Positions 14,144-63,099 of a stretch of 64,000 bases of DNA are shown here, piece by piece (positions within the stretch are counted from its first letter, which is position 1; each line of letters opens with the position of its first letter). The notes under the pieces are model-generated. The model did no database searches. It worked only from the letters and a program-made list of their open reading frames with translations, and was not told the origin of the DNA. The stretch is from the NCBI GenBank assembly GCA_951406725.2, contig OX597829.1, positions 19,902,001-19,966,000 of the forward strand. Direction: 5' to 3'. This DNA comes from Octopus vulgaris. Lineage: Eukaryota. The position numbers were made by a program, and so were the translations under genes.

Positions 14144-16629
14144 ACCCCACAACATAGACTGGTAGTTAGTGACTTTAGGATCAGGCCTAGGAGAACAACC
14201 AGAAGATGACCAACATGGAGAAGAAGGATCTGGAAGCTTAAAGATCCTGCGAATGGACAGAGATTTAGGGACATATTACTTGTAGCCTTTGACGAAGTAG
14301 AAGGGGATAGAGCATCACAGGGGGTAGAAGACAACTGGACGTTTCTAAGGGACAACCTGCTGAGAGCCACTGACCAGATCTGTGCCTGGTGCAAAGTCCC
14401 CTCTCGACCTAGAATAACGTGGTGGTGGAACAATGTTGAGGACAGGGCTATTAGAGAAAAGAGACAGGCTTGGAAGGACTGGAAAAATGGGGGTAGCAGG
14501 GAATTGTATCATACTGCCAAAAGAGAAGCTAGGAGACAGGTTTATTTAGCCAGAGGGGAAGCAGATAAGAAAAAAATTTGCCAATGTTCTGCGCCGTGAG
14601 GACCAAAGACTGGAGGTGTTTCGCGTTGCAAGACAGTGTGTGAGAGAGAATTGTGATGTGGTAGGAGAGAAGTGTGTTCGCATGGAAGATGGTTCACTTG
14701 TGCTAAATGAGGATGCAAAGAGAGAGGTTTGGAGATGCCACTATAAAAGGTTGCTGAATAAAGAAAATGAATGGGATAAAGAGAGTCTGCTGAATGTTGA
14801 CCCAACAGAGGGACCAGCTATCCGAGTTGATAGTTCCTTGGTAGTTAAGGCAATTAGAAGCATGAAGACAGGGAAAGCCCCATGCCCATCAGGAATCACT
14901 GCAGAGATGCTCAAAATATCTGGTAGTGTCGGCTATAGCCTAGTCACCAGTATAGTTAATCAGGTGATACACGAAGGAGTCATACCCAATGACTGGTGTA
15001 GCAGCATAATAGTCAACTGCTACAAAGGTAAAGGTGACGCCCTAGATACAAATAATTACAGAGGTATCAAGCTGTTGGGTCAGGTGATGAAGGTTACGGA
15101 GATGGTCATAGCCCAACTAATTAGAGAGAGAGTTAGTTTAGATGAGATGCAGTTTGGGTTTGTGCCAGGGAAAAGTACCACTGATGCTATATTCCTGGTA
15201 AGACAGCTGCAGGAGATATACCTAGCCAAAGATAAGCCCCTGTACCTGGCTTTTGCTGACATGGAGAAAGCCTTCGACAGGGTCCCCCGATCCCTTATCT
15301 GGTGGTCAATGAGGAAACTAGGGATAGATGAATGGTTAGTGAGAGCTGTGCGAGGCATGTACAGGGACGCTGCTAGTAAGGTGAGGGTTGGCAACGAGTA
15401 CAGTGGAGAATTCTGGGTAGAGGTAGGGGTCCACCAAGGCTCAGTCCTCAGCCCCTTCCTATTTATCATAGTCCTCCAGGCAATAACGGAGGAATTCAAG
15501 ACAGGATGCCCTTGGGAGATCCTCTATGCTGATGACCTTGCTCTAATTGCTGAGTCACTATCAGAACTGGAGGAGAAGTTTCAGGTGTGGAAACAAGGAT
15601 TAGAATCGAAGGGCCTTAGAGTCAATCTAGCTAAAACCAAAGTCGTAATCAGTAAGAAGGTAGACAAATCACAAATGCCTTCACGTAGATGGCCCTGCTC
15701 GATCTGTAGAAAAGGTGTAGGTAGAAACTCTATAAGATGCACCAAGTGTAAGATATGGACACATAAGAGGTGCAGCAATGTCAAAGGAAGGCTAACTAGG
15801 AAGATGGTTTTTGTATGAGGCAGATGCTCAGGAACAATAAACACTGAAAATGCTCTGGGACCAACTGTCACTTTCCAGGTAGAAAAACTAGAAATAGTTG
15901 ATAGCTTCCGTTACCTAGGTGACCAAGTCAGCAGCGGGGGCGGGTGTGCTGAAAGTGTAAACTGCTAGAGTAAGAATAGCTTGGGCAAAGTTCAGAGAGC
16001 TCTTACCTCTGCTGGTGACAAAAGGCCTCTCGCTCAGAGTAAAAGGCAGACTGTATGACTCGTGTGTACGAACAGCCATGCTACATGGTAGTGAAATATG
16101 GGCCGTGACTGCTGAGTATATGCGTAAGCTCACAAGAAATGAAGCCAGTATGCTCCGATGGATGTGTAATGTCAGTACTCATACTTGACAGAGTGTAAGT
16201 ACCTTGAGAGAAAAGCTGGACCTAAGAAGCATCAGTTGTTGTGTGCAAGAGAGATGATTGCGCTGGTATGGGCATGTGGTGAGAATGGATAAAGATAGTT
16301 GTGTGAAAAAGTGCCACACCCTAGCGGTTGAGGGAACCTGTGGAAGAGGCAGACCCAGGAAAACCTGGGACGAGGTGGTGAAGCACGACCTTTGAACTTT
16401 AGGTCTCACTGAGGAAATGACAAGAGACCGAGACCTCTGGAAGTATGCTGTGCGTGAGAAGACCCGGCAGGACAAGTGAGACCATAACCCGTGGCCTTCT
16501 ACATGGGATGTAGCCAGCCCACGTATGCATACCTTCCCTTCTTGGGACACAAAACTCTACTTGTGAAGACCTGTTGAGGCAAGTGAGGATCAGAATCGAA
16601 ATCGATAAATGGAAATTGCAGCTGAGTTA

Positions 16630-21461: not shown

Positions 21462-24400
21462 TGTGGTGTTATGAGCCAGGCTGTGTTGTAGGGAAGGATC
21501 AGAAGTGAGGGAGTAGGCATGTCCTGTCAGAAGTGGGGCCTGTGGATCCCACCAGAAGTGCTGCAGTGGACATGTGGCATTCAGTGAAGCACGAGGGTCA
21601 GTCAGCAGCCGAACAGCACATCAGAGTGGACGTGTGAGAAGGTAGAGCATCGGATAGTGCACGTAGATGTGGAGTGAACCTTGGAGATCGTGACAGCACG
21701 TGGATGTAGACCCTTTCTCCGGGAAAGACTACCATAATTCTCTCTTTGCTTCTGTCTTTTTTCTTCTTTTACATCACAAGCTATTTCAGCTCAAACAAGA
21801 AAAAAAATGATGAGTTTGGACCGTGTTTCGAATGAGACGGTTAGGCCATTTTGTGGCAAGGGAGATGTGACTGCTTTGCTGCTAAAAATTAAGTTCGTGG
21901 AAAGACTCCAAGGTATAGATGATCTAGTGGGTTTTATACTGCTGTACCTTGATGGATCGGTGTTGGCGCTATACCTGGAAATGGAAGAGAAGGACCAGTT
22001 GGGTGCAGAAAAAATAGAAGACTAGCTGATGGAGGCTTTCACAGAAGGGCCATTTATGGCATGTGGTTGACTGGGGAAAACAAAGTGGATGGGTGAACAG
22101 GTCAATGTGTTTGCCAATGAAATCAGGAGATTGGCTAGACTCATGGGATAAAGAGATGGCGCATTAGAACAAACCATAAAATTAGCCTTTGTAACAGGAT
22201 TTCCTGACCACATGTCGGTCGAGCTGCAAAAGCTGCCGAATATTCACTCTATGGCAATGGGAGAGATAATCTCATGGGCCAGAGCTATTGTCTTGTGTTA
22301 CAGGATGACACCTTTGGCAGCGACTGCAACACTGAGAAGGGGATGACCAAAGAACAGCAGAGAGGGGTCGAACACGGAACAAGCGTGACTCTTCAAAGGG
22401 CAGTGTTTTCGGTGTCAGGGTTTGCATATGGCAAGGGAAAGAAGGGAACCCAGGCCTGGAGCGATTTGCTATAGATACAGACAGATATGCCACATCGCTA
22501 GTGAATGTGTGCAGGGAAACGGTCCAAGGGAGACTATTGCACTGGTAATTGTCCCATTGAAGGAATAGAGGCGTGTTTACAGCCGTTGCCAGTAGAAGTC
22601 ATGGTGAACAGAAAGGTGTCACAAGCCCTCGTGGACACGGGCTGCTCAACAACCCTAATGACTCCAGAAGTGGTAGAAGAATGGAGTGGAGTGAGTAGTG
22701 TAAGGGCTGTTGATGGTACGGAAGTTGAATGCAGAGGAAGTACCGATGTGGAGATGGTGATACGAGGAACAAGATTGAGGTTGTGGGCTATTGTAATTGA
22801 TCATGTAGTGGATGGGATCGATGTTGTGATGGGGATAGATCCCATTGTCCACTTGCGAGGTGTTACAGTCAAAGAAGCCAGTGTAGTGTTCGATGATGCG
22901 GGGGTGCTATGCACTGTGAGTTCATGACAGGAGAGTGGTGAGAGCTGCAAAGAAAAATATGCTGCACACACCATCACAGACAAAGATTTTCGAGCTGTGT
23001 TCGATGGCTGGCAGTGGACAGTGGAATGGTACTGGAAGGGAGGTCCTCCAACACTGAAGAATGCAGTAGGCTGCTATCAGCATACACTGAAAGGGGATGC
23101 CAGAAGCGAGTTCGAGGGAGAAGTGGACTGGTGTATCAAGGAAGGTGTTCAGATTCCTTGGAAGGAGGAAGTGAAGACTGGAGTGCTACTGCTGATGGCA
23201 GTGGTGCAGCTGACGAAACATAAAATCAGGCCAGTACGGGATTTCCGGGAGCTGAATAACTACGTATTGTGCCATATGGGCGGTGAAGCTACGGACATTT
23301 GTAACGAAACCTTGAGAGAGTGGAGGCAGACAATGGGGGCCTCTACAATCGTCAACTTGAAGTTGGCATACCTGCAGCTGCATGTGGCTAAGAGACTGTG
23401 GAAATACCAGCTGGTAAGGTATAAAGGACAGACATACTGCCTGACCAGGTTGGGATCCGGGCTGAATTCAGCACTGAAGATTATGGCGACAATTCTCAAG
23501 ACCATCCTGGGAAAGGCCGACAAAGTGAAAAGAACCACCAATACCTATATCGATGACATCCTGGTGGATGAGAGCAAAGTGTTGGCAAATGAGGTCATAA
23601 GCCACCTGAGGAGTTTTGGGTTAACTGCCAAACCACCAGAGGCAATGGAAGGAGGAGCTGCCCTGGGACTCAAGCTATGGAGCGACAAGGCTTGCGTGTT
23701 CGTGTTTCAGAGAGGGAATGAGATCCCAGAACAGGGCTCAAAGACGAGATGGCAGGAACTATTTTCTGTGTGTGGGAAGCTGCTGGGATACTACCTGATT
23801 GCAGGATGGATCCGGATGGCATGGTGAGCTGAAGGAGTGAGGTGGAGTGATAACGTGGGCGAGAAGACAACCATCATGATGCAAGAAGTCTTGGAGAGGG
23901 TGACTGTGGAGGACCCAGTAAGAGGGAACTGGTATGTGCCCAAATTGAAGAAGGGGATCGTGTGCTGTGATGCCAGCAGCATAGCGACGGAAGTTGTCCT
24001 GGAAATTGGAGGTGTCATGGTGGAGGATGCGGCCTGGCCTAGAAAGAAGGACGACTGCAACCACATCAACGTAGCGGAGCTGGATGCCATGCTGAAAGGG
24101 CTGAACCTGGCCCTGAGGTGGGGGCTGCATACCATCGAGATCCAGACCAATTCGGCCACTGTACTTAGGTGGGTGGGATCAGTGATCACAGGCAAGCAGA
24201 GGGTGCAGAGATGCTGATAAAATGCCGGCTGGGAATTCTGGGCAAACTAGCTGCTGAATTTGACCTGAGACTGAGTGTGATTTTTGTGCCCTCAGAGAGG
24301 AATAGAGCGGACATCCTGACTAGAGTAAAGAAAGCCTGGTTGCAGGTGCCAGAGGATCTAGAGTAAGGAGTGGCTGTGGTGTGTCGACTGAGTGACTCAG

Positions 24401-25448
24401 AACTGAGGAGATTGCATACCATGCATCACATGGAGGTGGACAGGACCCTGTTCCTAGCCAGGAAAGTTAACTCTGACATGACCAGGGAGAGTATACAAAG
24501 AGCAGTTGGGAGCTGTGACAGGTGCCAGTCCATTGACCCCGCTCCAGGTGTGCATGAGACAGGAAGCATTCCAGTGGAACACAACTGGAATCGACTGGTA
24601 GTGGACGTGATGCCTTACCAGCAGGGGACATACCACTCAATGGTTGATTGCGGACCGGGGCGGTTGGCCATATGGAGGGAGATGAAGACAGGGACCTGGG
24701 AGGAAATCACAAGAATACTGAATGAAGTATTCCTAGAACGGGGCCCTGTGGATGAGCTGCTTTTTGACAATGGCACTGTGTTTTGCTCGGAGGTGCTGGG
24801 GGAAATGCTCAACAAGTGGCATGTCAGCTGTTTTTTCAGGGCAGCATACCAGCCAAGTGGCAATGGGGTTGTGGAGAGGCATCATCGTACCATCAAGACC
24901 ATAGCAGAGAGGGGCCACATCTCACTGGTCGAGGCCATTTTTTGGTATAATATGTCGCCCAGGATGGGACAGGCTGAGGAGTCAGTGCCACACGGGGCAA
25001 TATTCAAGTATGAGTGGAGGCATCCATGTACTGCATCGCTGCATCCTGCAGAAGAGAAGGAGCATGCCATTGTGCAGGTCAGAGAAGTCTGGGTTAAGCC
25101 CCCAAATGCACAGTGCACATCACAATGGGAAAAGGGGACAATAGCCTCTGTGAATTCGAGAAACAACGTATCCATAGATGGCATACTATGACATGTTTGG
25201 GATGTGTGCAGGATCATCACTGCGATGGAGGATGGGGCCAACAATAATGGACAAGAGGTCAAAGCCAGCAGGAACATGCTAGGAACTGAGGTCAGTCCTG
25301 AACTTCCACAGCGGGAGCGGTGCCTTCCTTGCTAGTTGGCTGATTACAAGACAAGTTAAGGCATGTGGTCGGAGTTGAGAAGAAGGCATGGGCAGGTTAG
25401 ATGAATGATGTTTAGATCGGGTGAGGGGGGGAGCGTGTGCTGTTATGG
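21462..25448 (+). mobile_element. Ty3/Gypsy LTR retrotransposon, decayed (5' LTR-gag-PR-RT-RNase H-IN-PPT; 3' LTR almost entirely lost)
   Basis: 5' LTR 21462-21778 (TGTGGTGT..ACATCACA); gag from 21807 with decayed CCHC knuckles ~22400-22510; protease LVDTGCS; RT IRPVRDFRELN, YCLTRLG.GLNSA, YIDDILV; RNase H CDAS..HINVAELDA; integrase HH..CDRC, DNG, SGNGVVERHHRTIK; polypurine tract then TGTGCTGTTATG at 25436. Multiple stops and frameshifts. Confidence 0.92.
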
Positions 25449-27408: not shown

Positions 27409-27634
27409 CTCGTAGGGAAAACCCATGACAATACTTTAAATACTTTAAATAAAGATGTTTTCACTGAAAACCTACGCATGTGGTGCCCAAAAGGGTTAAA
27501 TTCGTTTGCGCACGCGTCAAACGAATTAAACAATCCTTTTGGGCACCACATGCGTAGATTTTCAGTGAAACCTCTTGAAGCCTATGACAATTTTAAAATT
27601 TATTTAAAGTATTGTCATGGGTTTTCCATACGAG
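27409..27634. mobile_element. Fold-back (hairpin) MITE in SIVA1 intron 1
   Basis: Arms CTCGTA.GGAAAACCCATGACAATACTTTAAATA..TTTCACTGAAAA.CTACGCATGTGGTGCCCAAAAGG..AATTCGTTTG and their reverse complement around a short GC-rich loop. Confidence 0.8.
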
Positions 27635-34186: not shown

Positions 34187-34606
34187 ACATTATTTACATT
34201 TGACGGATATTTGTCCTCATCTTGTTTGTTGTTAACACAACATTTTAGCTGATATACCCTCCAGCCTTCATCAGGTGTCTTGGGGAAATTTTGAATCTGG
34301 GTTCTCATTCCTAAGGTATTTTTCGATATTATTATTATTATTGTTGAGGTCACTACTTGGAATCTTGGGGTTAAGAGCGCAAGCTACTGACCCCAAGATT
34401 CCAAGCAGTGACCTGAACAATAATAATAATAACATTGAAAAATACCTTAGGAATGAGAACCCAGGTTTGAAATTTCCCCCAAGACACCTGAAGAAGGCTG
34501 GAGGGTATATCAGCCGAAATGTGTTAACAACAAACAAGATGAGGACAAATATCCATCAAATGTAAATAATGTACATAATTCCTCATCTCTTAAATATAGA
34601 ACTGTA
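34187..34606. mobile_element. Palindromic Penelope-like remnant with decayed hammerhead cores
   Basis: ~185-bp inverted arms (34187-34373 / 34388-34572); GACAC CTGAAGA A GGCTG..CAGCC GAAA..GTGTT at 34483-34525, mirrored on - in the left arm. Confidence 0.7.
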
Positions 34607-36265: not shown

Positions 36266-39200
36266 GTGCAATTCACCTACCTCCTCCAGTTCTCTTGCAG
36301 CATCAACTTTCCAGATAGGCTATATCTGTAAGTGCTCTACTCACCTAACCTCTGACCGGAACATAACAGCAAATTTCCTTCAGTCTACATATCCATTCAC
36401 CATGACCAATCCAAAGCAAAAGAGACTCATGCAGGTCCTGCTCCTGCTCATGTGACACCCTTCACTTCTTGCCTTCTGATAAGGCTCCTCAGCCATTGAT
36501 GCCACTGACCATTTACTTCTGGTTCACCTCATTCTCACACATCCTCCTGATCTCACTGAATATTGCTCTGTGTGACATATACTAGAATACTTCCTCAAGC
36601 AGTGAAGAAGCAGTTCCTGTTCCACTTATTGAGCATTTCCTTCAGCACCTCCAAGTGGAATACAGTGTCACTGTCCATAAGCAATTCATGCACAAGGATC
36701 TACTCCAGGAACATCTCGTTCAGGATTTGTGCAACTTCATCTGCAGCCCCCATATTAATTTTCCTCCACACCACCATCTACCTTGGTTCACAATTGACCA
36801 TCAAGAGATATGTCCCCTGCTCATAGTGCATCACATCAACCCTGTATCCCATGGCACTGCCAACTGGGTTTTCTTCACCCTGGTTAGGATATCTACCTTA
36901 TTTCTTTATTAGGGCACAAAGACCACACTCAGTTTCAAACCAAATTTGGCAGCTAGCTCTACCAGAATTCCTAGGTGGCACTTTATTAACATCTCTGCCA
37001 CCCTTTTTGTATGTACCCTCCTCTCATCAGTGATTACTGATCCCATCCATCCAAGTACAGTAGCCAAATCAGTTTTGATTTTGATAGTACACAGCCCCCA
37101 TTTCAGGACCAGATTCACTCCCTTCAGCTCTGCATCCAATTTGGTCACATTAATGTGATTGCAATCGTTAGTTTGCCTGAGCCAGGTAGCATCCTCCACC
37201 TTGACACCACCTTCCAGAATGACTTCTATCACTAGGCTGCTAGTATCACACCATATGGTCCCATTCTCTAATTTGGGTACACACCAGCTTCCTCTTACTA
37301 GGTTTTCTGCTCCTACCCTCTCTAGAAACTCCTGCATTGTAGCCACCATCCTCTCTCTCTCTCTTGCTTTGTCTTCCACCCCCAGCTTAACTTGTCTGCT
37401 CATGTCTTGACATAGCTAAACACTGCTCAAAGCCACCTGCAATTGGATAGTAACCTACCAGTCTCCCTAACATCTTGTTTCTTTGCAGTTTGATCCCCTC
37501 AAACCATCACCTCTGGTGGTTAGTCTAAACTGCTTTGGCTGACCTATGACCTCTGCCGCCAACACCATGATCTCTTCTACCAAGATATCAATATAGTAAC
37601 TGGTGGTCTTTTTTACTTTGCCCACCTTTGCCAGTATAGACTTGAAGACCATGATCTTCGGTGCTGAATTCAACCTGGAACCCAACATGGTCAGACAGTA
37701 TGCCTGGCCTTTATTTCTTACCAGTAGATTTTTTTTGTAACTTTTCACCTACATGCAGCTTCTTATATGCCAACTTCAAGTCATCAATCATGCCAGCCCT
37801 CATCATCCATCTTGCAATGTCTCTTTGCAGACATCGATAATCTCACCACTCATGTGACACAATACAGCTCTCAAAAAGTCCGATACTGGCCTGACCTTGC
37901 TCTTCATTGGCTGCACCACTGCCACTAGCACCAACACTCTACTCTTTACTTCCTCCTTCCAAGGGATTAAAATACTCTTTTCCATCCCTCCCTCATAACT
38001 CACTCCTGGCATCTTCTTTCTGATTATGCTGATAACTGCTTACCCTATTCTTCAAAACCAGGGGCTCCCCTTTTCAGCACCACTCAACTATCCACTGCTG
38101 ACCATCTAACACAGCCTGAAAATCCTTATCTACAATGGTGTATGCAATACAGTTCTCTCAGGGGCTTTACTCATTCTCTTGTTGCAAACGTATTAGCACA
38201 TGATGTCCAGCACCACCAAACATAAACTCATCTTCACTAAACTGTGACTCCATGCCCATCACAACTTCAACTCCATCCACCACATGATTGATCACAATTG
38301 CTCACAGCCTTCGTTTTGTTCCCCACACCATCGTCTCCACTTCACTGCTTCCTCTACAACTAATATCTCTGCCATCAATTGCTCTTACACTATTCGTCCC
38401 ACTTTTTAGCCACCTTTGGGGTCGCTAAAGTCGTTGTACAGCCCATCTCCATAAGGATTTTGAACACCTTCCCCCCAACAAAGACCTCAACTATAGGTAA
38501 TGACTATATGTATGCCTCTACTTGCCTGCAGGGGAAGTTAGAGATGCAGTAACTACTCTGTGATTATATCACTGGCTGCAGTTTCTAGTGATATGTCCTG
38601 TCTGCTTGCACCAGTAGCAAATGGGCTCAGGCTTCAACTCATCACAATCCCTTGCCATGTGCACCTAAAACACTGATCTCCAAATGGTCATGGCTGCTCC
38701 ACAGAGGCTCTGCTTTTGTTGTTGCTTATCAGTCACCACCTGACTCTCTAAGCTTCTGTAGCTGCCATCGCCACTGCATTCTGCCTGGTGTTTTGCGTTG
38801 ACATATGGGCTTGAACGATAAGTTTGCATATAGACATCTTGCTGCCTGACAGCTGCACCAATATCTTATCAGAGAAACCATTCACAAATGACAACTGTTC
38901 TGCTTTTCCCAAGCCTTCTCCCATAATTCCAGGGAGCATAGCCAACCTACGAATTACTGCTGCATATATATCACCTGTTCTCCCATCCACCCCATCTTTC
39001 CTAACTTGGCAGATGCAGTGTATGTCTCTTCTGTGAATGTTTCCTTTAAGTGCCATTCGATGTTTTTTTTTTTACATCCAGTTAGTCTACTTCATTCATT
39101 ATGAGGTACAGTGCCAATGCAGAGCCATGAGACCTGCTGGGTTTTCAATGGCTTGCAGCCTGGCCACCACCTTGATCTTCTCTCCCTACAGAAGGGTCTG

Positions 39201-42850: not shown

Positions 42851-44449
42851 AAATAATAATAATAAATAATAAAGATGTCTTGAATGAAACAGATGGGAAA
42901 CAATTCCTTCAAAACTATGAAATTGTCAAAGTTTGGGATTAACAAGAAGATCTTGAATGAAGCCTGTTGACCTTAGTAACAGTAACTATACTAATAATAT
43001 AAAAAAGTTATTTTAATAACACAACATCAGAATTGTCTCATAACATAAAATTAAAATATGAGATGGAGTGGCTGTATAGTTAGGAGGTTCACTTTGCGAT
43101 CCTGTGGTTCCTGGTTCACTCCTACTGTACAGACAACTTGGCAAATGTTTTCCATCAGAGCTGGAGGTTGACTAATACCTTTGGTTGACAGAAACTTCAT
43201 GGAAGTTTGGCGAAAATAAGTGTGTATTTGTTTCTGTGTATTTTGGTGCAAATTCCCCGTGATGTTGTTTATTTCCTACTGGGAGGTACCTCCCTCACAA
43301 GGAACATAACCAAAGATAAACATAGCCATTTGATAAATAGAGAAGAATAAAATAAATATCAAAGTACTAGGGTTGATATAATATATTAATACTCGTGGAG
43401 ACAGTACTGCAAGCATGGATGAAGTTCAATTATTGATGCCAGCAAATGATAAAAGAATTAAGAACAGTATAAGTATTGCACTACAATAAAAGATCATATA
43501 TACAAATGTAAAACATTCTTAAAATATGAAGTATAAAGTATACTTAACATATAAACAGCCAAAGAAAAGTGAAATGGCAAACATATGAGTTGTTAATAAC
43601 AGAAATAATAAAATTATGAAACATAAAATGATTTTTCTTCTTCTTTTTTTTTAACTTAGTCAACTGGAAAGTATTGAAAATGGAATCCTAAAAGGAGATA
43701 ATACAAGAGTATTTTAAGAAAAGAGCAGAATACAAGACAACGGAGTAGAAAAGAGATAGCAAGGGAGCATCTACATGGCTGTTCAACCTACTAAAAATAG
43801 CAGCCAAATTTTTCTCACATCACAGCCTACATTCTTAAAAAAAAGGAAGTATATATCGGTTAATGCAGATCCAGATATACAAGGAGGGATGAGGATGATC
43901 ATGGTTCGATCATAAATTTGCTTGATGAAGGCCAAAATGGTTAAATTCATGAATTTGGATAAGTTTAGTATGTCAGAATAAGTCTAGTACATTCCAGAAC
44001 TGACACTTTATCAGAGATAAGATTTAAGAAGAAAACAAAATTATTAACTGTAAACTATCAGATTCTTCTCCTCCTGATAGTATACAAACTTATGAATTTT
44101 AATGTATAATTTTTGGCAGACACACACACACATGTATGTATGCACACACACACTCATGCACATATACACTCACCCACATTATTACTATTTTAATGCTTGC
44201 GTTTCAATGTTTACTTATATCAAGCAGAATTAACTGAGACAGATTTATGTCAGCAACTATCACCATTTCCCAACTAGTTAATATTTCCTGTGGATGGACA
44301 TATATTCACAGAAGATTGGAAACCAATGATGCTGCCTGCAAGAAGGTGATGCTTGTTTACCGTAAATCCTCGAGTATAATCCGCATTTTTTTCCCAATTG
44401 ATGTCAAGCGATGTTGGGGTGACAAACACAGACACACAAACATATACAC

Positions 44450-44488
<39 letters not shown>

Positions 44489-46014
44489 CGATGGACTTCT
44501 TTTCAGTTTCCGTCTACCAAATCCACTCACAAGGCTTTGGTCAGCCCATGGCTATAGTAGAAGACACTTGCCCAAGGTGCCACGCAGTGAGACTGAACCC
44601 GGAACCATGTGGTTCATAAGCAAGCTACTTACCACACAGCCACTCCTACGCCTATCACATGTTTATATCAATTTGCATTTCCATAACGTCACATGTTTGC
44701 ACCAATTTAATAGGTGAACCAGGAAATGTTGAATGAATTGTCCTACCTAGAAATAGTCAGTTATGCTTGATTGTTTAGTTTAACACACTATCTGTTAAGG
44801 TTATTTTTTTTTTTTATTTGACAGTTAAAGACAGGACAATATTTAAAATAACAAAATAAAATTGCTCATTTTACACACACACACTGGTTTTGTGCTAAAA
44901 AGTGGGTTCAGTGCTGCGCAACTCTTTATCTACACAAATTCACAGAGGAACTTCCTGGGCTTTTGAAATGTTTGCACGGACTTACAGAATTTAGGAAGTG
45001 GTCTTACATGTTCACAAGTTTACTTTCAACACACACACATGCTCACTCTAATACACGTGTGTGTGTGTGGTTCTCTATCAATTTCAACAAAGATTCAGTT
45101 GTTTGATTAATTGAATCATTTGCTTATCGACTTAACTCGTGTGTGGCCAGGCCATTCCACAGACAAGTGCAATATTAAAGTAATTCTCAGGTGGAATCAC
45201 CTACAAGATACTGCATTTGACAAGGCTTTACCTTTGAATTACAGGTACAATCTACATGATATACTTCTACATAGTTTCTTATTTCTTTATTGCCCACAAG
45301 GGGCTAAACATAGAGGGGATAACACAAGGACAGACAAAGGGATTTAGTCGATTACATCGACCTCAGTGCGCAACTGGTACTTAATTTATCGACCCCGAAA
45401 GGATAAAAGGCAAAGTCGACCTCAGCGGAATTTGAACTCAGAACGTTTAGACAGACGAAATACCTCTAAGTATTTCACCCGGCAAAGTAGCGTTTCTGCC
45501 AGTTTTCATCCACCCAATTTCATTCACAGGTATGAGTCAATTCAAGGCTATAGAAAATAACATTTACCCAAGATGGTATGCACTGTGATCAAACAGGATG
45601 CTTCTTGGTTACAAAGTAAACATGCTGACCACTTAGTTATACTGTACCTATATGTATATATATAATTTTATGGAAGCAGATATTCCATTAATGAAACTCC
45701 AAGGGTTGCTTTTTGGTTCATTAGGCAGTTCTCACTCAACATGGAATGTAGATTTATATATACTCTTTACTCTTTTACTTGTTTCAGTCATTTGACTGTG
45801 GCCATGCTGGAGCACTGCATTTAGTTGAGAAAATCGACCCCAGGACTTATTCTTTGTAAGCCTAGTACTTATTCTATCGGTCTCTTTTGCCAAACCGCTA
45901 AGTTATGGGGACATAAACACACCAGCATCGGTTTTCAAGCGATGTTGGGGGGACAAACATATACAAACACATACGTACGTACGTACATACATACATACAT
46001 ACATACATATACAT

Positions 46015-46049
<35 letters not shown>

Positions 46050-49000
46050 TATATACAACAGGCTTCTTTCAGTTTCCGTCTACCAAATCCACTCACAAGA
46101 CTTTGGTTGGCCTGAGGCTATAGTAGAAGACACTTGCCCAAGGTGCCATACAGTGGGACTGAACCTGGTACCATGTGGTTGGTAAGCAAGCTACTTACCA
46201 CACAGCCACATATAATTTAGGTTCTTTTAGTAAGTTACAAAATATTTCAAAGTATACACATAATTTGATTAGTTGTTGGGAAGTGATAAAAAGCATTGAA
46301 CAATACAAATGTAAGAAGTAGGTATAAAGAAAGAAAATTGGAAAATGAAAACAGAAAAAAAACAATGCAGCAAAGAACATGAATTGCAGTAAAACAGAAT
46401 GGATTTCTTAAAGGGAAATTGATTAAATATTAGAGATGAAAAATAGAGGTAATAATTTAAGAAAATTAAAGGTTAAAAAGAATCTATAAACTTAGAAAGT
46501 TTTTATATCAGTGAAGCCTGCGATAGAAAGATGAAGACACCGGGGATAAGAGTAAAAAGAAAAGCATGAGGTATATGTTTTATTGCGTAGTCAATTGTTT
46601 TTAAAAGGACTTGTACTGCAGATTTATTTATAAAGAAGACTTATACTGTTTATACTTATATAGTACATACTTTTACAGTCACTAAACAGAAGCTAAAAAT
46701 AAGAGAGAAAATGAAGTGTAGGAGAAATTTAAGGAATGCTATAAAATTATATATGATATGGCATACATATGAGTAAGGTAATTGTAAAGTATTATTTATG
46801 ATAGCACAACATAGTTATATAAAGTTATGAAAATGTATGCATATGAAATATATATACAGAGCAATGTATGTGCCAAAGTGGTAACCCTATTGTGTATATT
46901 TGTATAGCATATTTGAATAATGTAATTAAATAATTACCAATATGGTAATTTATAGTATAGCAATTTAGAGTTCTTCAATGAAAATTAATAGCTATGTCTG
47001 AATATTCCTATAACAGAATAAACTTTCTAGTCTTTCAGAGAGGCACAAAACACAAAAATGGTTGTAACATGATACAAAATTTCTTAATTTGATGTGGATG
47101 TTTAGTGTGTTTGTCTTTCTAAATCCAAATATATTTCGACAAAGTAGTTTCTGATCATTTGATTAGGTGTTTAAAAATGTAGTGTTAGTCATATCTTAAT
47201 TTAAACAAGTTAAACTTTAAACTGGTGTAGTCTAAAATAATAACTGGTACATTTTCTACTCACATTTTTTTTTTATTGAATTGAATAAATATGAATTTAA
47301 TTTAATTTTCTTAAATATTGCCAAACTACTACAAATTGTCGTTTGTTGGACATCAACCATTTAAAAGACATTACATAAGTTTTAAGCAATTGCATAGTTA
47401 AAAGGTATTAGGATTATAGGAAGCACAAGTTTTATTATTTTTAAGATTAAAGTTCAACAAGGATTCAGTAAAATTACCCATGATGGCTGCCCTTAATATT
47501 TTACAAAAATATTTTTCAAAACTCTACAGTATGATATTTTGTTTTCTATTTGTTATCCATGTAGCATTATTGTTATTGCTCTGATGATAATAATAGGTTA
47601 TAGTAATTGGATGCTAGTAAGTTAGAAGTTAATGCTTTGGTATATTTTCTTAAATCTAAGCTGGTGGGTGGTTTGAATACATATAAATATATTGTAAAAT
47701 TTGAATTGGTTTTCCATAGGAATGGAAGCTATGAGATATTGCATGATTAATTCAAAACAATGTGAATAAATAAGCATTACATTTGACAGAGTCATCTGAA
47801 TGCTAATGGATTAAGATATGTGTTGTCAATGATTTTCAAGTTTAAATATTTAAATTTATTGCAAATTTTTCAGAAATATATCTGTTTGTGAGTTAATAAT
47901 TTTTAAAAGCCATTATCACAGTATAAACTATTTGCTAAAAATATTATGTTTAGGTGCAATATACAAAGACAGATTAATTTGCAAATTTCTGCCAAGTCCA
48001 TTAAAAGTTAAAGTTAATATCAAAGGAAGTAATACCCTTTTTCTTTATCTCCAAGTTTTTGTCAAAAAAATAACAGTGATTTCCTTCCACGTAACATGAT
48101 TTTAATAATGGAATACGAGAACATGACTGGTAGTGGACATTGATGCTTTGTGAAGAGTTTATTACTTGAAAGGTAATAATCTATGCTATCAAACTGGATA
48201 AATTCATATTGTTGATTATTATTGATGTTATTGGACTATTTTGTAACTAAAATACTTTTGTTCCATAACAATAAATTACAAACTTCTTTTATTTTTATGC
48301 CTATTTTGCATGAAAAATCTTTTGCAATTTAATTGACTTTCAGTTGGATTCATACATTTTGTAAATGGGTTTCTCAGGAAATTAGTTTAAGATTCTTAAA
48401 TGTGATATACAGTTTGCATAGTGCTAAAGCTTCAATAATTTCATTTCTGTTTAAGTGAATTACAATCTTTTCATATCCAAAGTTAATAGAATCAAGAGTG
48501 GTGTTATTCATATTTCTGTTCTTTTTTTTTTGTTCTTTTTTTTTATAAATCCATGGTGCTTTTTGATAGAAAGAGTGATTTGCTTCATAAAAATATTTTG
48601 CTTTGTCTAATTGTACAAAAAATTCATATTCTTCATCTTTTCCTCATTTTTTTTTTCCTCTCTTAACTTTTACCTCTTACACTATACTGTATTTGATAAA
48701 ACATTAAGTTTTTTACACACTCTATTCATATCAATTACCAACAACCAATCAAATTATATATCTTTTCAAATCTTTTTGTGACTTACCAAGGGAACACAAA
48801 CTCTGTGTGTGTGTAGATGTTCTAAATTAAATCACTAAAGTCTGATAAGTCACACAAGTGAAGTTCCAGCTACTTTTAAATTTTATAGTACTCTATATTG
48901 GTTATTGAGCACTTTTAAACCTCTGTTTTAATTATTCATTTGCATGTGCGTGTGTGTGTGTGTTTTGGATATGACCTTATTACACTTAAATGTAGTTTTT

Positions 49001-51549
49001 AGCAGCATGAGAAACTGGTATTAACTAAATGACAAGATACCCAAAAAGTATCAAAACAATATAAAAGACAATATGAGTTTTTGTCAATGGCGTTGGTTTT
49101 AACGTTTAACCATACTGACTTACAAAGAGAGACAGATAGCTAAGCATGTAAATATTTAGAAAGACTGAGGAAGAAGCATAAATACAAATAGTTAGATTGA
49201 TAGATAGATAGGTGGATAAATGAAGAAATGGCTGTGTAGATATATTGATAGACATACAGATATGGAATAAATTCAAATTAATTACAAACGGAGTGTTCTT
49301 GTGAGATAAGTTGTTTATATATCTGATGATGGCTCAATTATCTCTCTGTAGATTAAAAAAAAAATGACGATGATCGTGATATGTGTGTGTGTGTGTGATA
49401 TCACCATCATTTGATGATGTCCACCCCATGCCAGCATGGAACATGGATGCTAAATGAATGATTATCATGATGATGATGATGACTCTCCTGTCTTGGAATA
49501 TTGCATTAATGTAGTGTGACTGTAGAAATACTCCAAGATGCTACTATAACTTGTCATTTGGAGTATGTCATGAATATCTTACTTGGCATATAAAACTTTC
49601 ATCTGATATATTTGGTGTCCAAATATATTAGGTGAATCATTAGGCAATATCCAAGGGAGTATGTTTCCTGTGTATTGTTGCTGTATGATAGATATTGTCT
49701 AAGGGTGAACTGGTTATGTGATCTTAACAAAAAACTGTGACCCCTTACAATTTTTTTAAAGTTTCCAGTCATTTCTTCATAGCATCAAAGATTGACATAG
49801 TCTCAGTTTCTCTTGTTTTTCTTTTTATCTTTATGTCACTTCCTCTCCCTTTTCTCTTTCCTCCCACAATCTTATTCTTTCCTTCTTTCTCTTTTGCATT
49901 TTCATTTCTGCAATCATGAATGTCCTGGCCGCTATCAGCTTTTTAGCTAGTCACTTGGTTGGCATCAGAGCCAAGTGGTCTGTGATTTTTTTTTTTTTTC
50001 ATATCTTTGTTGTTATCTCTATCATTCTGGTTGACATCATAAGTAGATACATGAAGTCACTAGAATATAAAAATCCAACACCGAGCACCTTGCAATGGAT
50101 GGCTCCCTAAGCTTGCACAATCTCACCTTTGAGTATCTATCTATTTGCCAACATACCTATCCATCTACCCAACTTTCTACCTACCAACTTACCTATCCAC
50201 CTATTCAGCTATGCATCTATCTAGCCATCTATTTATATGTCTGTCTCTCTATCTCTCTAAATGTCTGCCTGTCTTTGTCACCTCATCTATCAATATGGTT
50301 GAACATTAAAACCTAAACCAGCAATAAAAAAAAACCCATTGTCTGTTATACTATTCTGATATTTTTTGATATCTTGTGCTTGAGAAGACTTGTCCAGCCA
50401 AGTGAAATCATAGTCATGGCTGATACCAGTGCCACCTGACTGATACCCATGCTGGTGGCACATAAAAAGCACCATTCGAGTACCGGTCGTCACGGAGGCA
50501 GTGACAAGTGATCAATGGATTTGGCAATATACTGTGCTTGTGAAGACCTATCAAGCCAAGTGAGATTGTAGTCATGGTTGATGCCGGTGGCATATAAAAA
50601 GCATTCACTACACTCTTGGAGTGGTTGGCATTAGGAACAGCATCCAGCCATAGAAACCATACCAAATCAGATTGGGAATTGGTGCAGCTCCCCGGCTTAC
50701 CAGCTTCTGGTCAAACCATCCAATCCATGTCAGCATGGAAAATGGACACTAAATGATGATGATGATGATCTTGTCATTTAGTTACCTCGGTGTCTCACAC
50801 TGCTATAAAGTACATTTACTGCTAAGAAGTCATTAGCTAGTCTAACTACATTGTATTATAAACACCAGTACACACACATTTTTTGCTTCATAAGCATGTG
50901 AAAGAGTACACGGTATTTGTTGTAAAATATATCTATTTCTTCAAAACTAGAATATTTACTAGGTGCATGTGTGTGTGTTCATGATATAAAGATGTAATAA
51001 ATTATATAGATATTCTAAAGTATATAAAATAAAAATCTTATGGGAAGTAAAAATGTTTCTAAAAGTAAATCCATAAGTATAACATTAAAATTGGGAGAAA
51101 AAAAATTTTTGTCTTTTTTACTTTATATACTGAAGTCAATTCTTATATAATAAGAATTTTAAATTAAATAACTTTATATAAATCATATATAAACGGGAAA
51201 AGCCTAATAAAAGAAAATAAGGAACAACATTTTTTTTAAATAATGATATAGTACGTTTCTAAATATCACTGCAAATATATATATGAAAGTGGAAACTGGT
51301 CAGATAAGAACAAAAAAACAAAAAAAAAAAAAAAGAAAATGTGAAGACCCTCACCTCAATCAATGTAGAACTCAAGAAGCACCGAAAAGAAGTAAGAAAT
51401 GAAGACAAAAAAAAAAACTCTCATTAAGCAAGAGTGAATGGAGAAGTGAATCAACATGAAAGCCAAGGAAAAAAAAATCCTCAGGACGGAAAACAGAAAT
51501 GGAGGATTTGGTTATAGCTGACTAGATTACTACTAAGACATCAAATATA

Positions 51550-58341: not shown

Positions 58342-58410
58342 CAATTATCATTTTTCAGTTTTTTAATACTTTCATTTACTTCTCTTGTTAGCTGCTTGTC
58401 TTTTGACTTG
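58342..58410 (-). CDS. Unidentified protein, internal exon ((C)KSKDKQLTREVNESIKKLKNDN)
   Basis: Acceptor TTTTGCATTTTGCAG; 69 nt, phase 2-2; only this frame is open; donor TG|GTAATA. Confidence 0.75.
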
Positions 58411-58456
58411 CTGCAAAATGCAAAATTAAATTATTTTTAATAAAATGAAATAATTT

Positions 58457-58692: not shown

Positions 58693-59871
58693 TGCTTCAA
58701 CACACAAACTCATATAAAGAATCTTGCAAACCAAATCCAAAAACGAGAAATAATTTTAATTATCATTATATCAATAACAGAATTGGTTAGTCCACATTAC
58801 GCTTTTAGGAGCATAAGACCGGTTTCCTGGTTTCTCTGGTGCATATGGTCCCCACTGGAGAGGACACTGGTCCATTCTAGGAGTACTCTTTTATACCAGC
58901 TGAGTGAACTGAAGCAACATGAAATGAAGTGTTTTACTCAAGAACATAACAAATCACTTGGTCCAGGAATTGAAACCACAATCTTATGATCATGAGTCCA
59001 ACACCCTAACCGCTAAGCCATATGCTTCTACAAATAATAGAATTAATAAAGTAAAAATAATTCAAATTAAGTAAATAATTTCTTAACCAGTAAATATATA
59101 AATAAATAATACTTTCTAACATAGGCGCAGGTCTGAAATTCTGGGACAGGGTGACAGTTGATTAGATTGTCACCAGTACTTGACTGGCACCTTATTTAAT
59201 CAACCCCCGAAGAATGAAAAACAAAGTTGATTTTGGCAGGATTTGAACTCAGAATCTAAACAGACAGAAAAAAATATCACAAGGCATTTTCCCCAAAGCT
59301 CTAACAATTCTGCCAATACACCATGCATGAATAAATGAATGAATAAATAAAATAACAACCCTTCTAAGTGGCAGAAGGCTTTACCATAGGTAGGTGTTGG
59401 TTATTATGTAGCACCAATACTAAAATAACTGCACTACCTGTCTGCTGTTGCTGCCATTAAAATACAGCAATGTCCTACATAGACTTCTCAGATGAATTTA
59501 TATTTTACCTTGCACTTGTTTCAGCTGTTAGGCTGTAACCACTCTGGGGCATCACCTCGAAGAATTTTTAGTCAAATTAATCAACCCCAGTACTTATTCT
59601 ATCAGTCTCTTTTGCCAAACCACTAACTTATGGGGATGTAAATACACCAACACCAGTTGTCAAGCAGTAGTGGAGGGCAAACACAGACACGAAGACACAC
59701 ACTCATATATATATATATATTCAGCAAAAACAATTAAGATTCAAGTGAATTCCAATGAATTCAAATGAATATGGTACTTAACTTAGATGCACCAGAATTC
59801 TTTATGGTATTAACCATAAAAAATGTGGGGTGATTATAACCAAGAAAAAGCAACAAGAATGGATTAGTAGT

Positions 59872-59959
59872 TTAGTACAATTGTTTCATACCAAGAACAA
59901 TTTTATTTAAAGCTGCAAGTATTGCAGCAAATACAAATGTCCAGTATTCATCAGCTAAA
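59872..59959 (-). ncRNA. Type I hammerhead ribozyme (mirror copy, sense with the host gene)
   Basis: Exact reverse complement of 60258-60346. Confidence 0.75.
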
Positions 59960-60257
59960 TCACATATATGTTTTCCAGACATCCTAGAGAGTGTGTCTAT
60001 CCTCATGAAGTATTAGGAGTGAGTTCTATGAAATTTAAAGTCAAATTATAAGCAGACTCAAATTGCTTTCTGATGATGCCCAGTTTTATAAAAAGATTGT
60101 TACCTCTGGGAAGTTAACAATCTTTTTATAAAACTGGGCATCATCAGAAAGCAATTTGAGTCTGCTTATAATTTGACTTTAAATTTCATAGAACTCACTC
60201 CTAATACTTCATGAGGATAGACACACTCTCTAGGATGTCTGGAAAACATATATGTGA

Positions 60258-60346
60258 TTTAGCTGATGAATACTGGACATTTGTATTTGCTGCAATACTT
60301 GCAGCTTTAAATAAAATTGTTCTTGGTATGAAACAATTGTACTAAA
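60258..60346 (+). ncRNA. Type I hammerhead ribozyme with canonical core and extended stem II
   Basis: Stem I TTTAG(60258-62)/CTAAA(60342-46); CTGATGA 60263-69; stem II ATACTGG../..TTGGTAT capped by GCTGCAA-TAC-TTGCAGC; GAAA 60330-33; palindromic stem III ACAATTGT; GUA cleavage triplet 60339-41. Confidence 0.78.
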
Positions 60347-62299
60347 CTACTAATCCATTCTTGTTGCTTTTTTCTTGGTTATATATATATTTACAACAGT
60401 CTTCTTTCAATTTCTGTCTACCAAATCCACTCACAAGCTTTGGTCAGTTTGAGGCCTCAGTAGACGACACATACCCAAAGTGCCACACAGTAGGACTGAA
60501 CCCAGAACCATGTGATTGAGAAGCAAGCTTCTTACCACACAGCCATGCCTGTACCTATGAACTATTTGAAGTTCATAGGGCAATTATATTAAATAGGTTA
60601 AGTCGTTGTTCATATAATTAATGCATTATTATCATTGTTGACATCATCATTTAATGTCTGTTTTCCTGTTGGTATGGGTGAGGTAGTTTGACAGCAACTA
60701 GCAATGCAGAAAAAAACTGCACCAACTTCTATTGTCTGTTTTGGCATGGTTTCTACTGTTGGATGCCCTTCCTAACACCAGCTACTTTACAGAGTGCACT
60801 AGGTGCTTTTTATGTGTCAGCAGCAGCAGTGAAATCACTAAATGACTTGCAGGACAAGACCTCTCAACTGAATGGGAAATAGTATTGAGGGAGAGAGAAA
60901 GTGTCTTGAATTAGAAGAAAAATACATGACTACCTTAGAGAGAGTGGAGGAGGAAGATATGATAGGGAGAGAGAAGAGAGCCTGTACACCCATGTTAGAG
61001 GGCAAATGTATATAGTGAAGTAGGCTGAGGATTGTAGAGGGTGAGTGCGTGGGTGAGTTTGCAAGATACTGAAAGGAGAGGGGGGCTAGAGGAAGGAGGG
61101 GATGTAATGAGTGGGCACTGATAGAGAGAGGGGGTATTAGGTAGATATATTGTGGAGAAGGGTTCAAGGGAACATATGCACAGGTAGGTACATGAGGGAG
61201 AACAGAGGGGAGAAGGAAGGGAGAAACAGCAGGGGTGAGAAGGGACAAGGACATGGATTTTACTTAGCTGGGTGGGTCTTCTTAAGCACAGTAAATCTCT
61301 AATTTGTCCTTTGTTAGGGAGGGATGATGAAAAAAAAATTTATCAATGACTTATATTATTTTCATTCTTTTGACAAGTAAGGGAAGCATCCCCAGGTCTG
61401 TCTTGGTCTTATTTATAATTTAATACATGCAGGAAGCATAGTTAAAAGTATTGTGGTGAAAGTTTCAAATGGTAAGGACAGGCCAAGAACAAGGTAGGCA
61501 GTAAGTGAAGGTCAAAAGGAATGATAAAGAAAGAAATTGTACAAAAACATGCAGTGTATAGGACACGTGTTTAACCCATGTCAACTGAAAAGATTTAAGC
61601 CAGAATGTAAAGTGGTTGGTGTTCAGAACGGCATCCATCAGTAAAAATCTTGCTAAAATTGACCTCGCCTGTGCTTGTGCTGCGTAAAAAGCACTAAGTC
61701 CACTTTGCTGAGTGGTTGGTGTTAGGAAGGGCATCCAGCTGTAAAACTCTTGTCAAAACAGTCACAGATGTCTGGTGCAGGCTTCTGCCTGGCTGGCTCT
61801 TGTGAAATCGTCCCACCCATGCTATGGAATGTAAACATTGAACGACGACAACAACGATGATGATGATGATGACAACAACAATGATGGCAATCATCATCAT
61901 CATTATTATTTAATGTCCGTTCTCCATGCGGGCATGGGTTGGACAGTGGTGATAACAAAGACTGAAAAATATTCAATATTTCTTCCAGTTTTTATATTTC
62001 TTTTCTGAGACCATACTAGACTGAATAGATCTGGATTTGCAATATATTCATGTAGAAAAGCTAAATACTTTCTCTAAAATCAGCCCTATATATATTAGAG
62101 ATAGCAACTAGGCTTAAGCTTAGCAAATTTCTTACCAAACAACAGAAAGGGGATTAAACTTTATTCTTTTAATAGTATCAGCTCAGGGCTGTGGCCATGC
62201 TGGGACATGCAACACTGTAATCTTTTAGCACTGTTTTCCCATTTAAAAAACCAATGCAGAAAAGAAAGTAGGAAAAAACAGCTCAATTAAAATACTTAC

Positions 62300-62349
62300 C
62301 AGTTTTTGGCTGAAGAGTTTTTTCTATCACATGACAGGTTGTTTGTAAA
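62300..62349 (-). CDS. Unidentified protein, internal exon (FTNNLSCDRKNSSAKN)
   Basis: Acceptor GGTTTCTTTTCATAG; donor CTG|GTAAGT; 50 nt, phase 0-2, joins both neighbours in frame. Confidence 0.8.
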
Positions 62350-62592
62350 CTATGAAAAGAAACCAGCGATAGGAGAAATAAGAAAGAATTTTAAAACAGC
62401 ACAAAGAAAATATCAGTGTTAATGTTTGATAACAGAGGACTCCAGTGTAATCCATGGGCAGGAGAGATGCAGCTGAAGTGTACGAGAGTAGAAAGTTCAG
62501 GTAGAATAGTCCAGTGTAGAAGGTGTAAAAGTTCGTTGGGTAACGAGAGGAGACAGGATCAACTGGTGCAACCACGTAAGCATGTAATATAT

Positions 62593-62933
62593 GGGGAGAA
62601 TTCACAAAAAAACAAAGGACGAAGACTGGTGGTGTAAACAACAGGTGTATTAGTTTAACACTCGGGAAGTGAAAAAGTCTTTAACGTTTTGAGTCTATGC
62701 TCTTCTACAGAAAGGAACACAGAAAGAAACAAGGAGAGAAAATAAAGAATGTGTAATGGCTAGTGTTCTCTCTTTATTTTCTCTCTTCGTTTCTTTCTGT
62801 GTTCCTTTCTGTGAAAGAGCATAGGCTTGAAATGTAAAAGACTTTTTCACTTCCTGAGCATTAAACTAATACATCTGTTTGTTGTCTACACTACCTGTCT
62901 TTGTCTTTTGTTTTTTTTTTGTGAATTCTCCCC
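62593..62933. mobile_element. Palindromic Penelope-like remnant with variant hammerhead-like core
   Basis: ~155-bp inverted arms GGGGAGAATTCACAAAAA../..TTTTTGTGAATTCTCCCC; arm consensus CTTT CTGTAGA A GAGC atag GCTC GAAA CGT(T/A) AAAG. Confidence 0.65.
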
Positions 62934-63099
62934 TTAATGTTTAATAAAGCAGAAGCTTCTATGTGGTCACCTAACTTTCTGGAAATAGTAGTCAAATCTC
63001 CCTTGAATCCAACCTTAATATCTTAAATAAAGTAGGATATATTGAACAATGTAGTTTCTGCTATAAAAAAAAATAGGATGTTTGCAGCATTCGACATCT

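Follow-up and report, generated by a model that had tools for sequence, protein, structure and literature searches.

A hammerhead-bearing palindrome in a GCN2 intron of Octopus vulgaris as a probable head-to-head insertion of Penelope-like element ends

Penelope-like elements (PLEs) of the EN+ type are documented to leave head-to-head insertions with a tail on one side only (PMC3846280, PMC8557442). For the PLEs of Adineta vaga, PMC3846280 describes inverted pseudo-LTRs (pLTRs) with a one-sided tail, the head-to-head arrangement being the most frequent, and proposes self-priming; the tail is explained in PMC11167929 by two internal start sites of the RT. The hammerheads of PLEs are reported in PMC4209133 mostly as single motifs in truncated copies, with dual motifs lying 100-700 bp apart on opposite strands, an arrangement on record from 2014. 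A minimal PLE hammerhead, taken singly, gave no detectable cleavage in vitro in that study, which also describes small palindromic helices III as impeding the cleavage of monomers. In PMC11167929 the cleavage is protein-assisted, and dispensable for insertion in vitro. The literature consulted treats the cutting of host pre-mRNA by these hammerheads in vivo as an unsettled matter. The Hydra clade of PLEs is defined in PMC8557442 by the motifs RWK, DKT, CxCX5C, CxxC and CxH together with TA targeting.

We analysed a window of 64,000 nucleotides of the Octopus vulgaris genome, in which a first-pass annotation had pointed to a hammerhead ribozyme locked in a long hairpin. Our analysis suggests, with high confidence, that the hairpin is a single insertion of two 5'-truncated pLTR ends of a Hydra-clade PLE, placed head to head within a TA run of a GCN2 intron, and that the predicted block of the ribozyme is a likely by-product of the integration.

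A palindrome in the penultimate GCN2 intron

The palindrome consists of the arms 59835-60105 and 60112-60383, and contains the longest inverted repeat of the window (59845-60105 / 60112-60372). Over 258 bp (59845-60102 / 60115-60372) the pairing is without fault. The arms differ by one mismatch near the apex and by a single additional base within a poly-T/A tract; beyond this base 10 more bp take the palindrome out to 59835/60383, i.e. to 268 with one bulge. The hairpin previously described as 268 bp and perfect is therefore real, its perfection being slightly overstated. Its folding energy has a z score of -56 against 20 shuffles.

Each arm carries one hammerhead motif. A strict type I descriptor, i.e. 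the CUGANGA/GAAA/NUH core with helices I-III, has only two matches in the window, 60263-60341 (+) and 59954-59876 (-), in line with the earlier observation that all the core nucleotides are present once per strand. The motif reads UUUAG-CUGAUGA-(60-nt stem II region)-GAAA-CAAUUG-UA/CUAAA, with a helix I of 5 bp, a base of helix II of 7 bp inside the 60-nt region, and ACAAUUGU at helix III. The latter, described before as an 8-nt stem III, is indeed palindromic, but the monomer forms only 2 bp closed by a 4-nt palindromic loop, which is a helix III of the dimer type and not the stable one that would permit monomer cleavage. A relaxed descriptor gave 5 matches in 184 kb (the window plus flanks), compared with 0-1 per shuffle in 5 shuffles. 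A scan of the window against Rfam at gathering thresholds found nothing.

The host gene is GCN2. An exon candidate beyond the window matched octopod proteins named eIF-2-alpha kinase GCN2, and a tblastn search with an octopod GCN2 (P0002) returned consecutive minus-strand exons with AG/GT ends, the last four being 63988-63878, 62349-62302, 58412-58344 and 54375-54325. The second and third of these bracket the palindrome, which hence lies in the penultimate GCN2 intron, and its assignment to a host intron is confirmed. Since GCN2 is transcribed from the minus strand, the sense arm is the left one, and the predicted cut relevant to the host falls after 59876, not after 60341 in the other arm as proposed before. 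It is true that on either strand the antisense arm is transcribed first; every head-to-head pair behaves in this way, and the order does not point to design.

The insertion is longer than the span 59835..60383 first assigned to it, as it continues to 59721 in a one-sided tail (Table 1). It measures ~680 nt and splits an older host repeat at the TA run of that repeat, the two halves of which form 14 other colinear left and right pairs in the 184 kb, separated by 15-463 nt as compared with 688 nt at the insertion. No target duplication is readable because both ends of the insert sit in TA runs. The two arms have 2 private substitutions and an 11-nt deletion in common and differ by no substitution over 253 sites, and the window copy is 0.9% away from the nearest other copy of the family. 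The private changes common to both arms imply one template, or arms copied from each other; by these sequence comparisons the insertion appears to be young and from one template, or else recently converted.

Table 1. Features of the GCN2 intron insertion and of two further fold-backs (window coordinates)
Feature	Position	Strand	Basis or remarks
GCN2 (eIF2-alpha kinase) exon upstream of host intron	62302..62349	-	P0002 residues 1145-1160, 100%; GTAAGT donor; tblastn bounds
GCN2 exon downstream of host intron	58344..58412	-	P0002 residues 1161-1183, 96%; CAG acceptor; tblastn bounds
Left half of abundant older host repeat, split by insertion	59510..59704	+	colinear pairs elsewhere
TA run, left end (target microsatellite)	59705..59720	.	
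One-sided tail, ~114 nt	59721..59834	-	same sequence after 5' pLTR, leading into ORF start, in near-full-length copies
Left arm: 5'-truncated 3' end (pLTR) of Hydra-clade PLE, GCN2-sense	59835..60105	-	same sequence ends RT + GIY-YIG copies L082/L174, L081, L083
Hammerhead type I motif, GCN2-sense	59871..59959	-	core start 59954, predicted cut after 59876
Right arm: second 5'-truncated pLTR, tail-less, GCN2-antisense	60106..60383	+	5' end ~12 nt longer, extra bases form hairpin loop
Hammerhead type I motif, identical	60258..60346	+	core start 60263, predicted cut after 60341
TA run, right end (target microsatellite)	60384..60390	.	
Right half of split host repeat	60393..60560	+	colinear pairs elsewhere
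Older fold-back, unrelated repeat family, minimal hammerhead-like motif	34187..34572	.	arm identity 90%; 988 first-look candidates
Decayed fold-back, third family, non-canonical CUGUGGA-type core, preceding GCN2 intron	62590..62936	.	arm identity 81%; 3,616 first-look candidates

The anatomy of the insert resembles the head-to-head insertions of EN+ PLEs (PMC3846280; legend of Fig. 2 in PMC8557442) in its inverted 5'-truncated pLTR and its tail at one end. It differs from those described there in that both octopus copies are ~270 nt long, and in a tail of ~114 nt versus 30-40 nt. Because both copies are cut to ~270 nt, the insert has no ORF.

Two further sites in the window had been credited with the same geometry in unrelated sequence, at 34187-34572 and 62593-62933. 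The claim of geometry holds, as both are fold-backs of other abundant families. At neither site do both arms carry an intact canonical ribozyme, and neither passed the strict or the relaxed descriptor. At the first site, 20 kb beyond the GCN2 stop codon, one arm lacks the helix III bases and the other has AAAA instead of GAAA. At the second, which is intronic, CUGUG(G/A)A replaces CUGANGA in 9/9 copies listed and the GCN2-sense arm also lacks GAAA. Their anatomy makes it likely that both families are Penelope-like.

The element family and its loci

The arm belongs to a repeat family with 1,317 first-look candidates, whose copies either stop at GGTTATA, with a TA run after it, or continue into the fixed tail. 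Long copies encode an RT and then a GIY-YIG endonuclease, according to motifs recognized by eye, with frameshifts or stops in every copy seen and no unbroken ORF among the family copies examined. The pLTR stands at the 3' ends of four of them (L081-L084), and in three near-full-length sister copies (L248, L251 and L252) the pLTR and the tail lie directly upstream of the ORF. Pfam gave no significant match for the endonuclease and RT pieces, and the assignment of both hence rests on the motifs and on a comparison by eye with the Hydra alignments in the supplement of PMC8557442. A search of the genome with PF12745 gave no match, and neither did its controls, so that it is uninformative.

The family can be placed among the Hydra-clade PLEs by its motifs and its TA targeting. 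In 5/20 loci (L244, L248, L251, L252 and L255), all sister copies with 87-90% identity in the RT region, both RWK and DKT lie upstream of the RT core. One further copy, L064, has the CxCX5C linker (CNCRIKSKC), CxxC (CQLC) and CxH (CIH) around a conserved E and N. TA runs follow nearly all of the tail-less arm ends among the 30 loci listed, as well as both ends of the insertion in the window. An assignment to the Neptune clade was dropped in favour of Hydra on account of RWK/DKT and the clade definition of PMC8557442. The Penelope-like origin and the inverted truncated copy that had been surmised at the outset are thus both borne out, the former by the RT + GIY-YIG copies, the pLTR and the Hydra motifs, the latter by two 5'-truncated pLTRs lying head to head.

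As in the Hydra-clade PLEs of PMC8557442, including Hydra-1_Obim, the octopus family combines RWK, DKT, CxCX5C, CxxC and CxH with a C-terminal GIY-YIG, (TA)n targets and a hammerhead near the 3' end. A comparison by eye sets it apart from Hydra-1_Obim as another family, with a different N-terminus, a different hammerhead with a 60-nt stem II region, and an asparagine-rich insert; the octopus element is also longer than the <3 kb given there as typical of the clade. An asparagine-rich stretch between the RT and the endonuclease of the long copies is shared with EN+ PLEs. The hammerhead is like those described for metazoan PLEs in PMC4209133, i.e. of type I, with a helix I of 4-5 bp, a long helix II, a small palindromic helix III, pairs on opposite strands 100-700 bp apart and mostly single motifs in truncated copies, but its stem II has no unpaired 5' base and is extended at length, with a further hairpin inside the extension. 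A type I hammerhead of PLE pLTR origin is also found in the non-LTR retrozymes of animals (bioRxiv 10.64898/2026.07.22.740005); they are non-coding families of same-sense tandem repeats, whereas the octopus insert is an inverted pair from a family in which RT and endonuclease are encoded by the long copies themselves.

Head-to-head pairs are frequent in the family, and many copies stand without one. We searched for exact matches to a 20-mer lying over the ribozyme's 5' half and aligned 10 kb around every locus. The 20-mer matched 88 times in 74 loci (its reversed control: 0), and all 14 pairs of exact matches are head to head (14/14). By alignment, the inverted copy covers the ribozyme with both arms in 19 of the 74 loci and partially in 5, misses the ribozyme in 16, and is missing in 34. 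In some of the 16, the inverted piece is merely a stray tail fragment. The tail is found on exactly one arm in 19/19 of the fully head-to-head loci. The ribozyme is uncovered in 50/74 loci, and 36/50 of these are intact by a pairing rule that overlooks motifs with a shortened stem II, the 20-mer having preselected intact 5' halves. The window copy is the only palindrome with 0 substitutions between its arms; the other 18/19 have 1-19, which rules out a general homogenisation from arm to arm. In a sister subfamily with 1,640 exact matches, 27/28 pairs within 6 kb are head to head among the first 100 matches listed (72 loci).

The fold of the hammerhead appears to be maintained in the element. 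Across 29 sister and 84 young motifs, with 5' halves preselected by the search pattern, the helices are paired while several pair types occur at positions 2-3 of stem I and positions 1, 5 and 7 of stem II (U-A, U-G, G-U, G-C and C-G across the subfamilies); the first pair of stem II is broken, by A-C at position 1, in 11/84 young motifs. The retained pairing suggests selection on the fold within the element lineage.

Predicted masking of the ribozyme

We propose the following course of events. The RT of the element, together with its GIY-YIG endonuclease, would have nicked the TA microsatellite, and a single template would have given rise to a pair of short cDNAs, or to one cDNA together with a mirror copy of it. 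One copy would begin at the pLTR end and the other ~114 nt further on, which would give the tail; both would stop early and then join by their 5' ends. Transcription of GCN2 should produce the antisense arm first, and the sense arm of the pre-mRNA should zip onto it; for this reason the ribozyme is predicted not to fold. Cleavage by an arm on its own would likely be poor as well, since helix III depends on another copy in the same sense or on the protein of the element. The function of the hammerhead thus likely belongs to the tandem transcripts of the element itself, and not to the host.

The predicted energies agree with such a block. In constrained folding of the host-sense RNA, the hammerhead shape lies above the free ensemble by 4.5 kcal/mol for the core, 6.2 for the arm, 7.8 for the arm with its tail and 120.5 for the whole insert, by nearest-neighbour energies that leave tertiary contacts, proteins and co-transcriptional kinetics outside the model. 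As a physical prediction, the earlier idea that the inversion masks the ribozyme is therefore supported, the whole insert costing the fold ~120 kcal/mol, and so is that of a substrate for ADAR or Dicer, in the sense of a predicted long dsRNA. The lone arm is predicted to adopt the active shape only rarely and to be mostly inactive.

An alternative hypothesis could be that selection has acted as a filter, i.e. that lone sense hammerheads cut the host pre-mRNA and are purged, so that the survivors in sense orientation within introns are enriched for an upstream inverted arm. We consider this improbable. It could draw on the predicted penalty of ~120 kcal/mol that the whole insert imposes on the fold, on the family holding its fold under selection through varying yet paired stems, and on the protein-assisted cleavage reported in PMC11167929. 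Non-LTR retrozymes are moreover depleted in Xenopus introns according to bioRxiv 10.64898/2026.07.22.740005, which points by analogy to some selection that may exist against intronic ribozymes, yet 42-44% of their copies are intronic. The octopus loci argue the other way, as 50/74 are uncovered. At one of them, L192, two consecutive dynein heavy-chain exons (P0010 residues 163-208 and 208-253) flank a single uncovered sense arm, with no antisense match to it in 60 kb; the hammerhead of this arm has the full core and one U-G pair in stem I, at a fold cost of 7.6 kcal/mol. A second uncovered hammerhead, of another family, lies in GCN2 sense in another GCN2 intron, partly damaged and with a shortened stem II. 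The lone arm is also 6-8 kcal/mol away from the active fold, and the minimal single PLE hammerhead of PMC4209133 gave no detectable cleavage in vitro.

The suggestion that the inversion makes an intronic insertion tolerable finds no support, in view of the uncovered loci, the bare intact copy in the dynein intron and the predicted poor folding of the lone arm. An uncovered sense copy in an intron refutes the necessity of masking; a weak statistical bias towards masked copies among sense-intronic insertions would be compatible with it. The host strand was fixed by exon mapping for 2/74 loci, GCN2 and dynein. In a survey of host strands, which yielded 2,111 exon candidates, of which 315 were kept and 145 scanned by Pfam, two loci pointed to host genes: the dynein locus, which was confirmed, and L197, a weak hint from one sub-threshold match to a glutamate-receptor-like protein with the motif antisense. 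Follow-up of the host-gene candidates at two more loci (L158 and L198) found nothing. A literature search over titles and abstract openings, covering few subscription journals, found no test of masking of an intronic PLE ribozyme. Selection for masking has no support in the present data, and we find it improbable that selection has enriched the locked copies among sense-intronic insertions, with head-to-head integration as a built-in lock of the ribozyme.

It is far less probable that the hairpin serves as a switch, in which ADAR would open it, activate the ribozyme and thereby regulate the GCN2 pre-mRNA. Such a switch would suit a long perfect dsRNA, hyper-editing being very high in this animal, and Penelope is reported in PMC5625713 as the only LINE besides chicken CR1 to be massively edited, in a lizard, which makes editing of the octopus hairpin plausible by analogy. 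However, when A was read as G with six core adenosines spared, the simulated gap was still 78-123 kcal/mol with 25-75% of sites edited, an upper bound because the G-U stand-in understates the weakening by I-U, while the chance that all six are spared fell from 0.18 to 0.0002 over the same range. The gap persists and the six are rarely all spared, and destruction of the ribozyme by editing hence looks likelier than its unmasking, two outcomes that had been put forward side by side, insofar as such a crude simulation can tell. In contigs from four runs presumed to be RNA, the palindrome had no usable signal of editing, splicing or cleavage.

A fold-back artefact of sequencing or assembly is scarcely credible: the locus is the only one of 19 palindromes without a substitution between its arms and no contig from four DNA runs spans it (the contigs being swamped by other repeat copies), but the arms differ by a homopolymer base, in their 5' end points and in the tail, the unique flanks resume as the two halves of one host repeat within a colinear gene, and 18 other loci have a like anatomy with 1-19 substitutions between their arms. 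A joint of 59664 with 60417 in the DNA-run contigs has sides of 20-21 nt and may stem from other copies of the host repeat.

Implications for octopus introns

The insert is an ordinary footprint of a known type of insertion, a young or recently homogenised stub. A single such locus matters little, and its value is that of test material: with covered loci (19/74) set against uncovered ones (50/74), the question of in vivo cutting of host pre-mRNA by PLE hammerheads could be answered from an annotated genome. It is plausible that head-to-head stubs are a source of the long dsRNA that has been linked to the hyper-editing of octopus. Should the lock and the selection both prove true, the introns of octopus, with thousands of stubs, would hold a record of PLE hammerheads cleaving in vivo with the help of a dimer partner or of protein.

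Variation in helix III and the catalytic core

Helix III reads ACGAUUGU in 11 of 29 hammerhead motifs from the sister subfamily (loci L258-L287). The perfect palindrome is lost in this form, and judging by the sequence helix III can still pair within a dimer through G-U. In the third repeat family, represented in the window by the fold-back at 62590-62936, CUGUG(G/A)A replaces CUGANGA in all nine copies displayed (L215-L226). This family is abundant, with 3,616 candidates at first look. Other repeats in the window are listed in the table.

Other repeats in the window
Feature	Positions	Basis
Decayed reverse-transcriptase-like / LTR-retrotransposon-like reading frames	14210-15818, 22505-25191, 36909-37415	By eye, from the ORF list
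Additional short, decayed fold-back	27409-27634	Arm identity 78%

The GCN2 gene outside the palindrome

A second hammerhead, uncovered and sense to GCN2, lies on the minus strand in another GCN2 intron, at 82087-82050 of the region reaching past the window end (L088; window-based coordinates). It is similar to the published Hydra-1_Obim motif (PMC8557442) and has a shortened stem II. The same GCN2 residues are matched twice in this region, at 77646-77494 (residues 890-940, 100%) and 76134-76018 (residues 893-931, 92%), possibly representing a duplicated exon, which may be mutually exclusive, or a remnant.

On the other side of the gene, 4-10 kb downstream of the GCN2 stop, positions 44001-50334 are tiled without splicing by contigs from three sequencing runs. 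These runs are only guessed to be RNA, and the stretch could be either a long GCN2 3' UTR or a separate transcript.

Coding and 5' regions of the long Penelope-like copies

A long asparagine-rich stretch separates the reverse transcriptase from the endonuclease in L062, L064 and L082, and PMC3846280 describes such a stretch, likewise between these domains, in Adineta Penelope families.

In two near-full-length copies (L248 and L252), the tail, i.e. the one-sided extension of the palindrome's left arm, continues as a pyrimidine-rich stretch ending in CAG ~40 nt upstream of the first ATG. The usual tail end (59721 in the window) falls ~20 nt upstream of this CAG, as though reverse transcription had started within a retained 5'-UTR intron.
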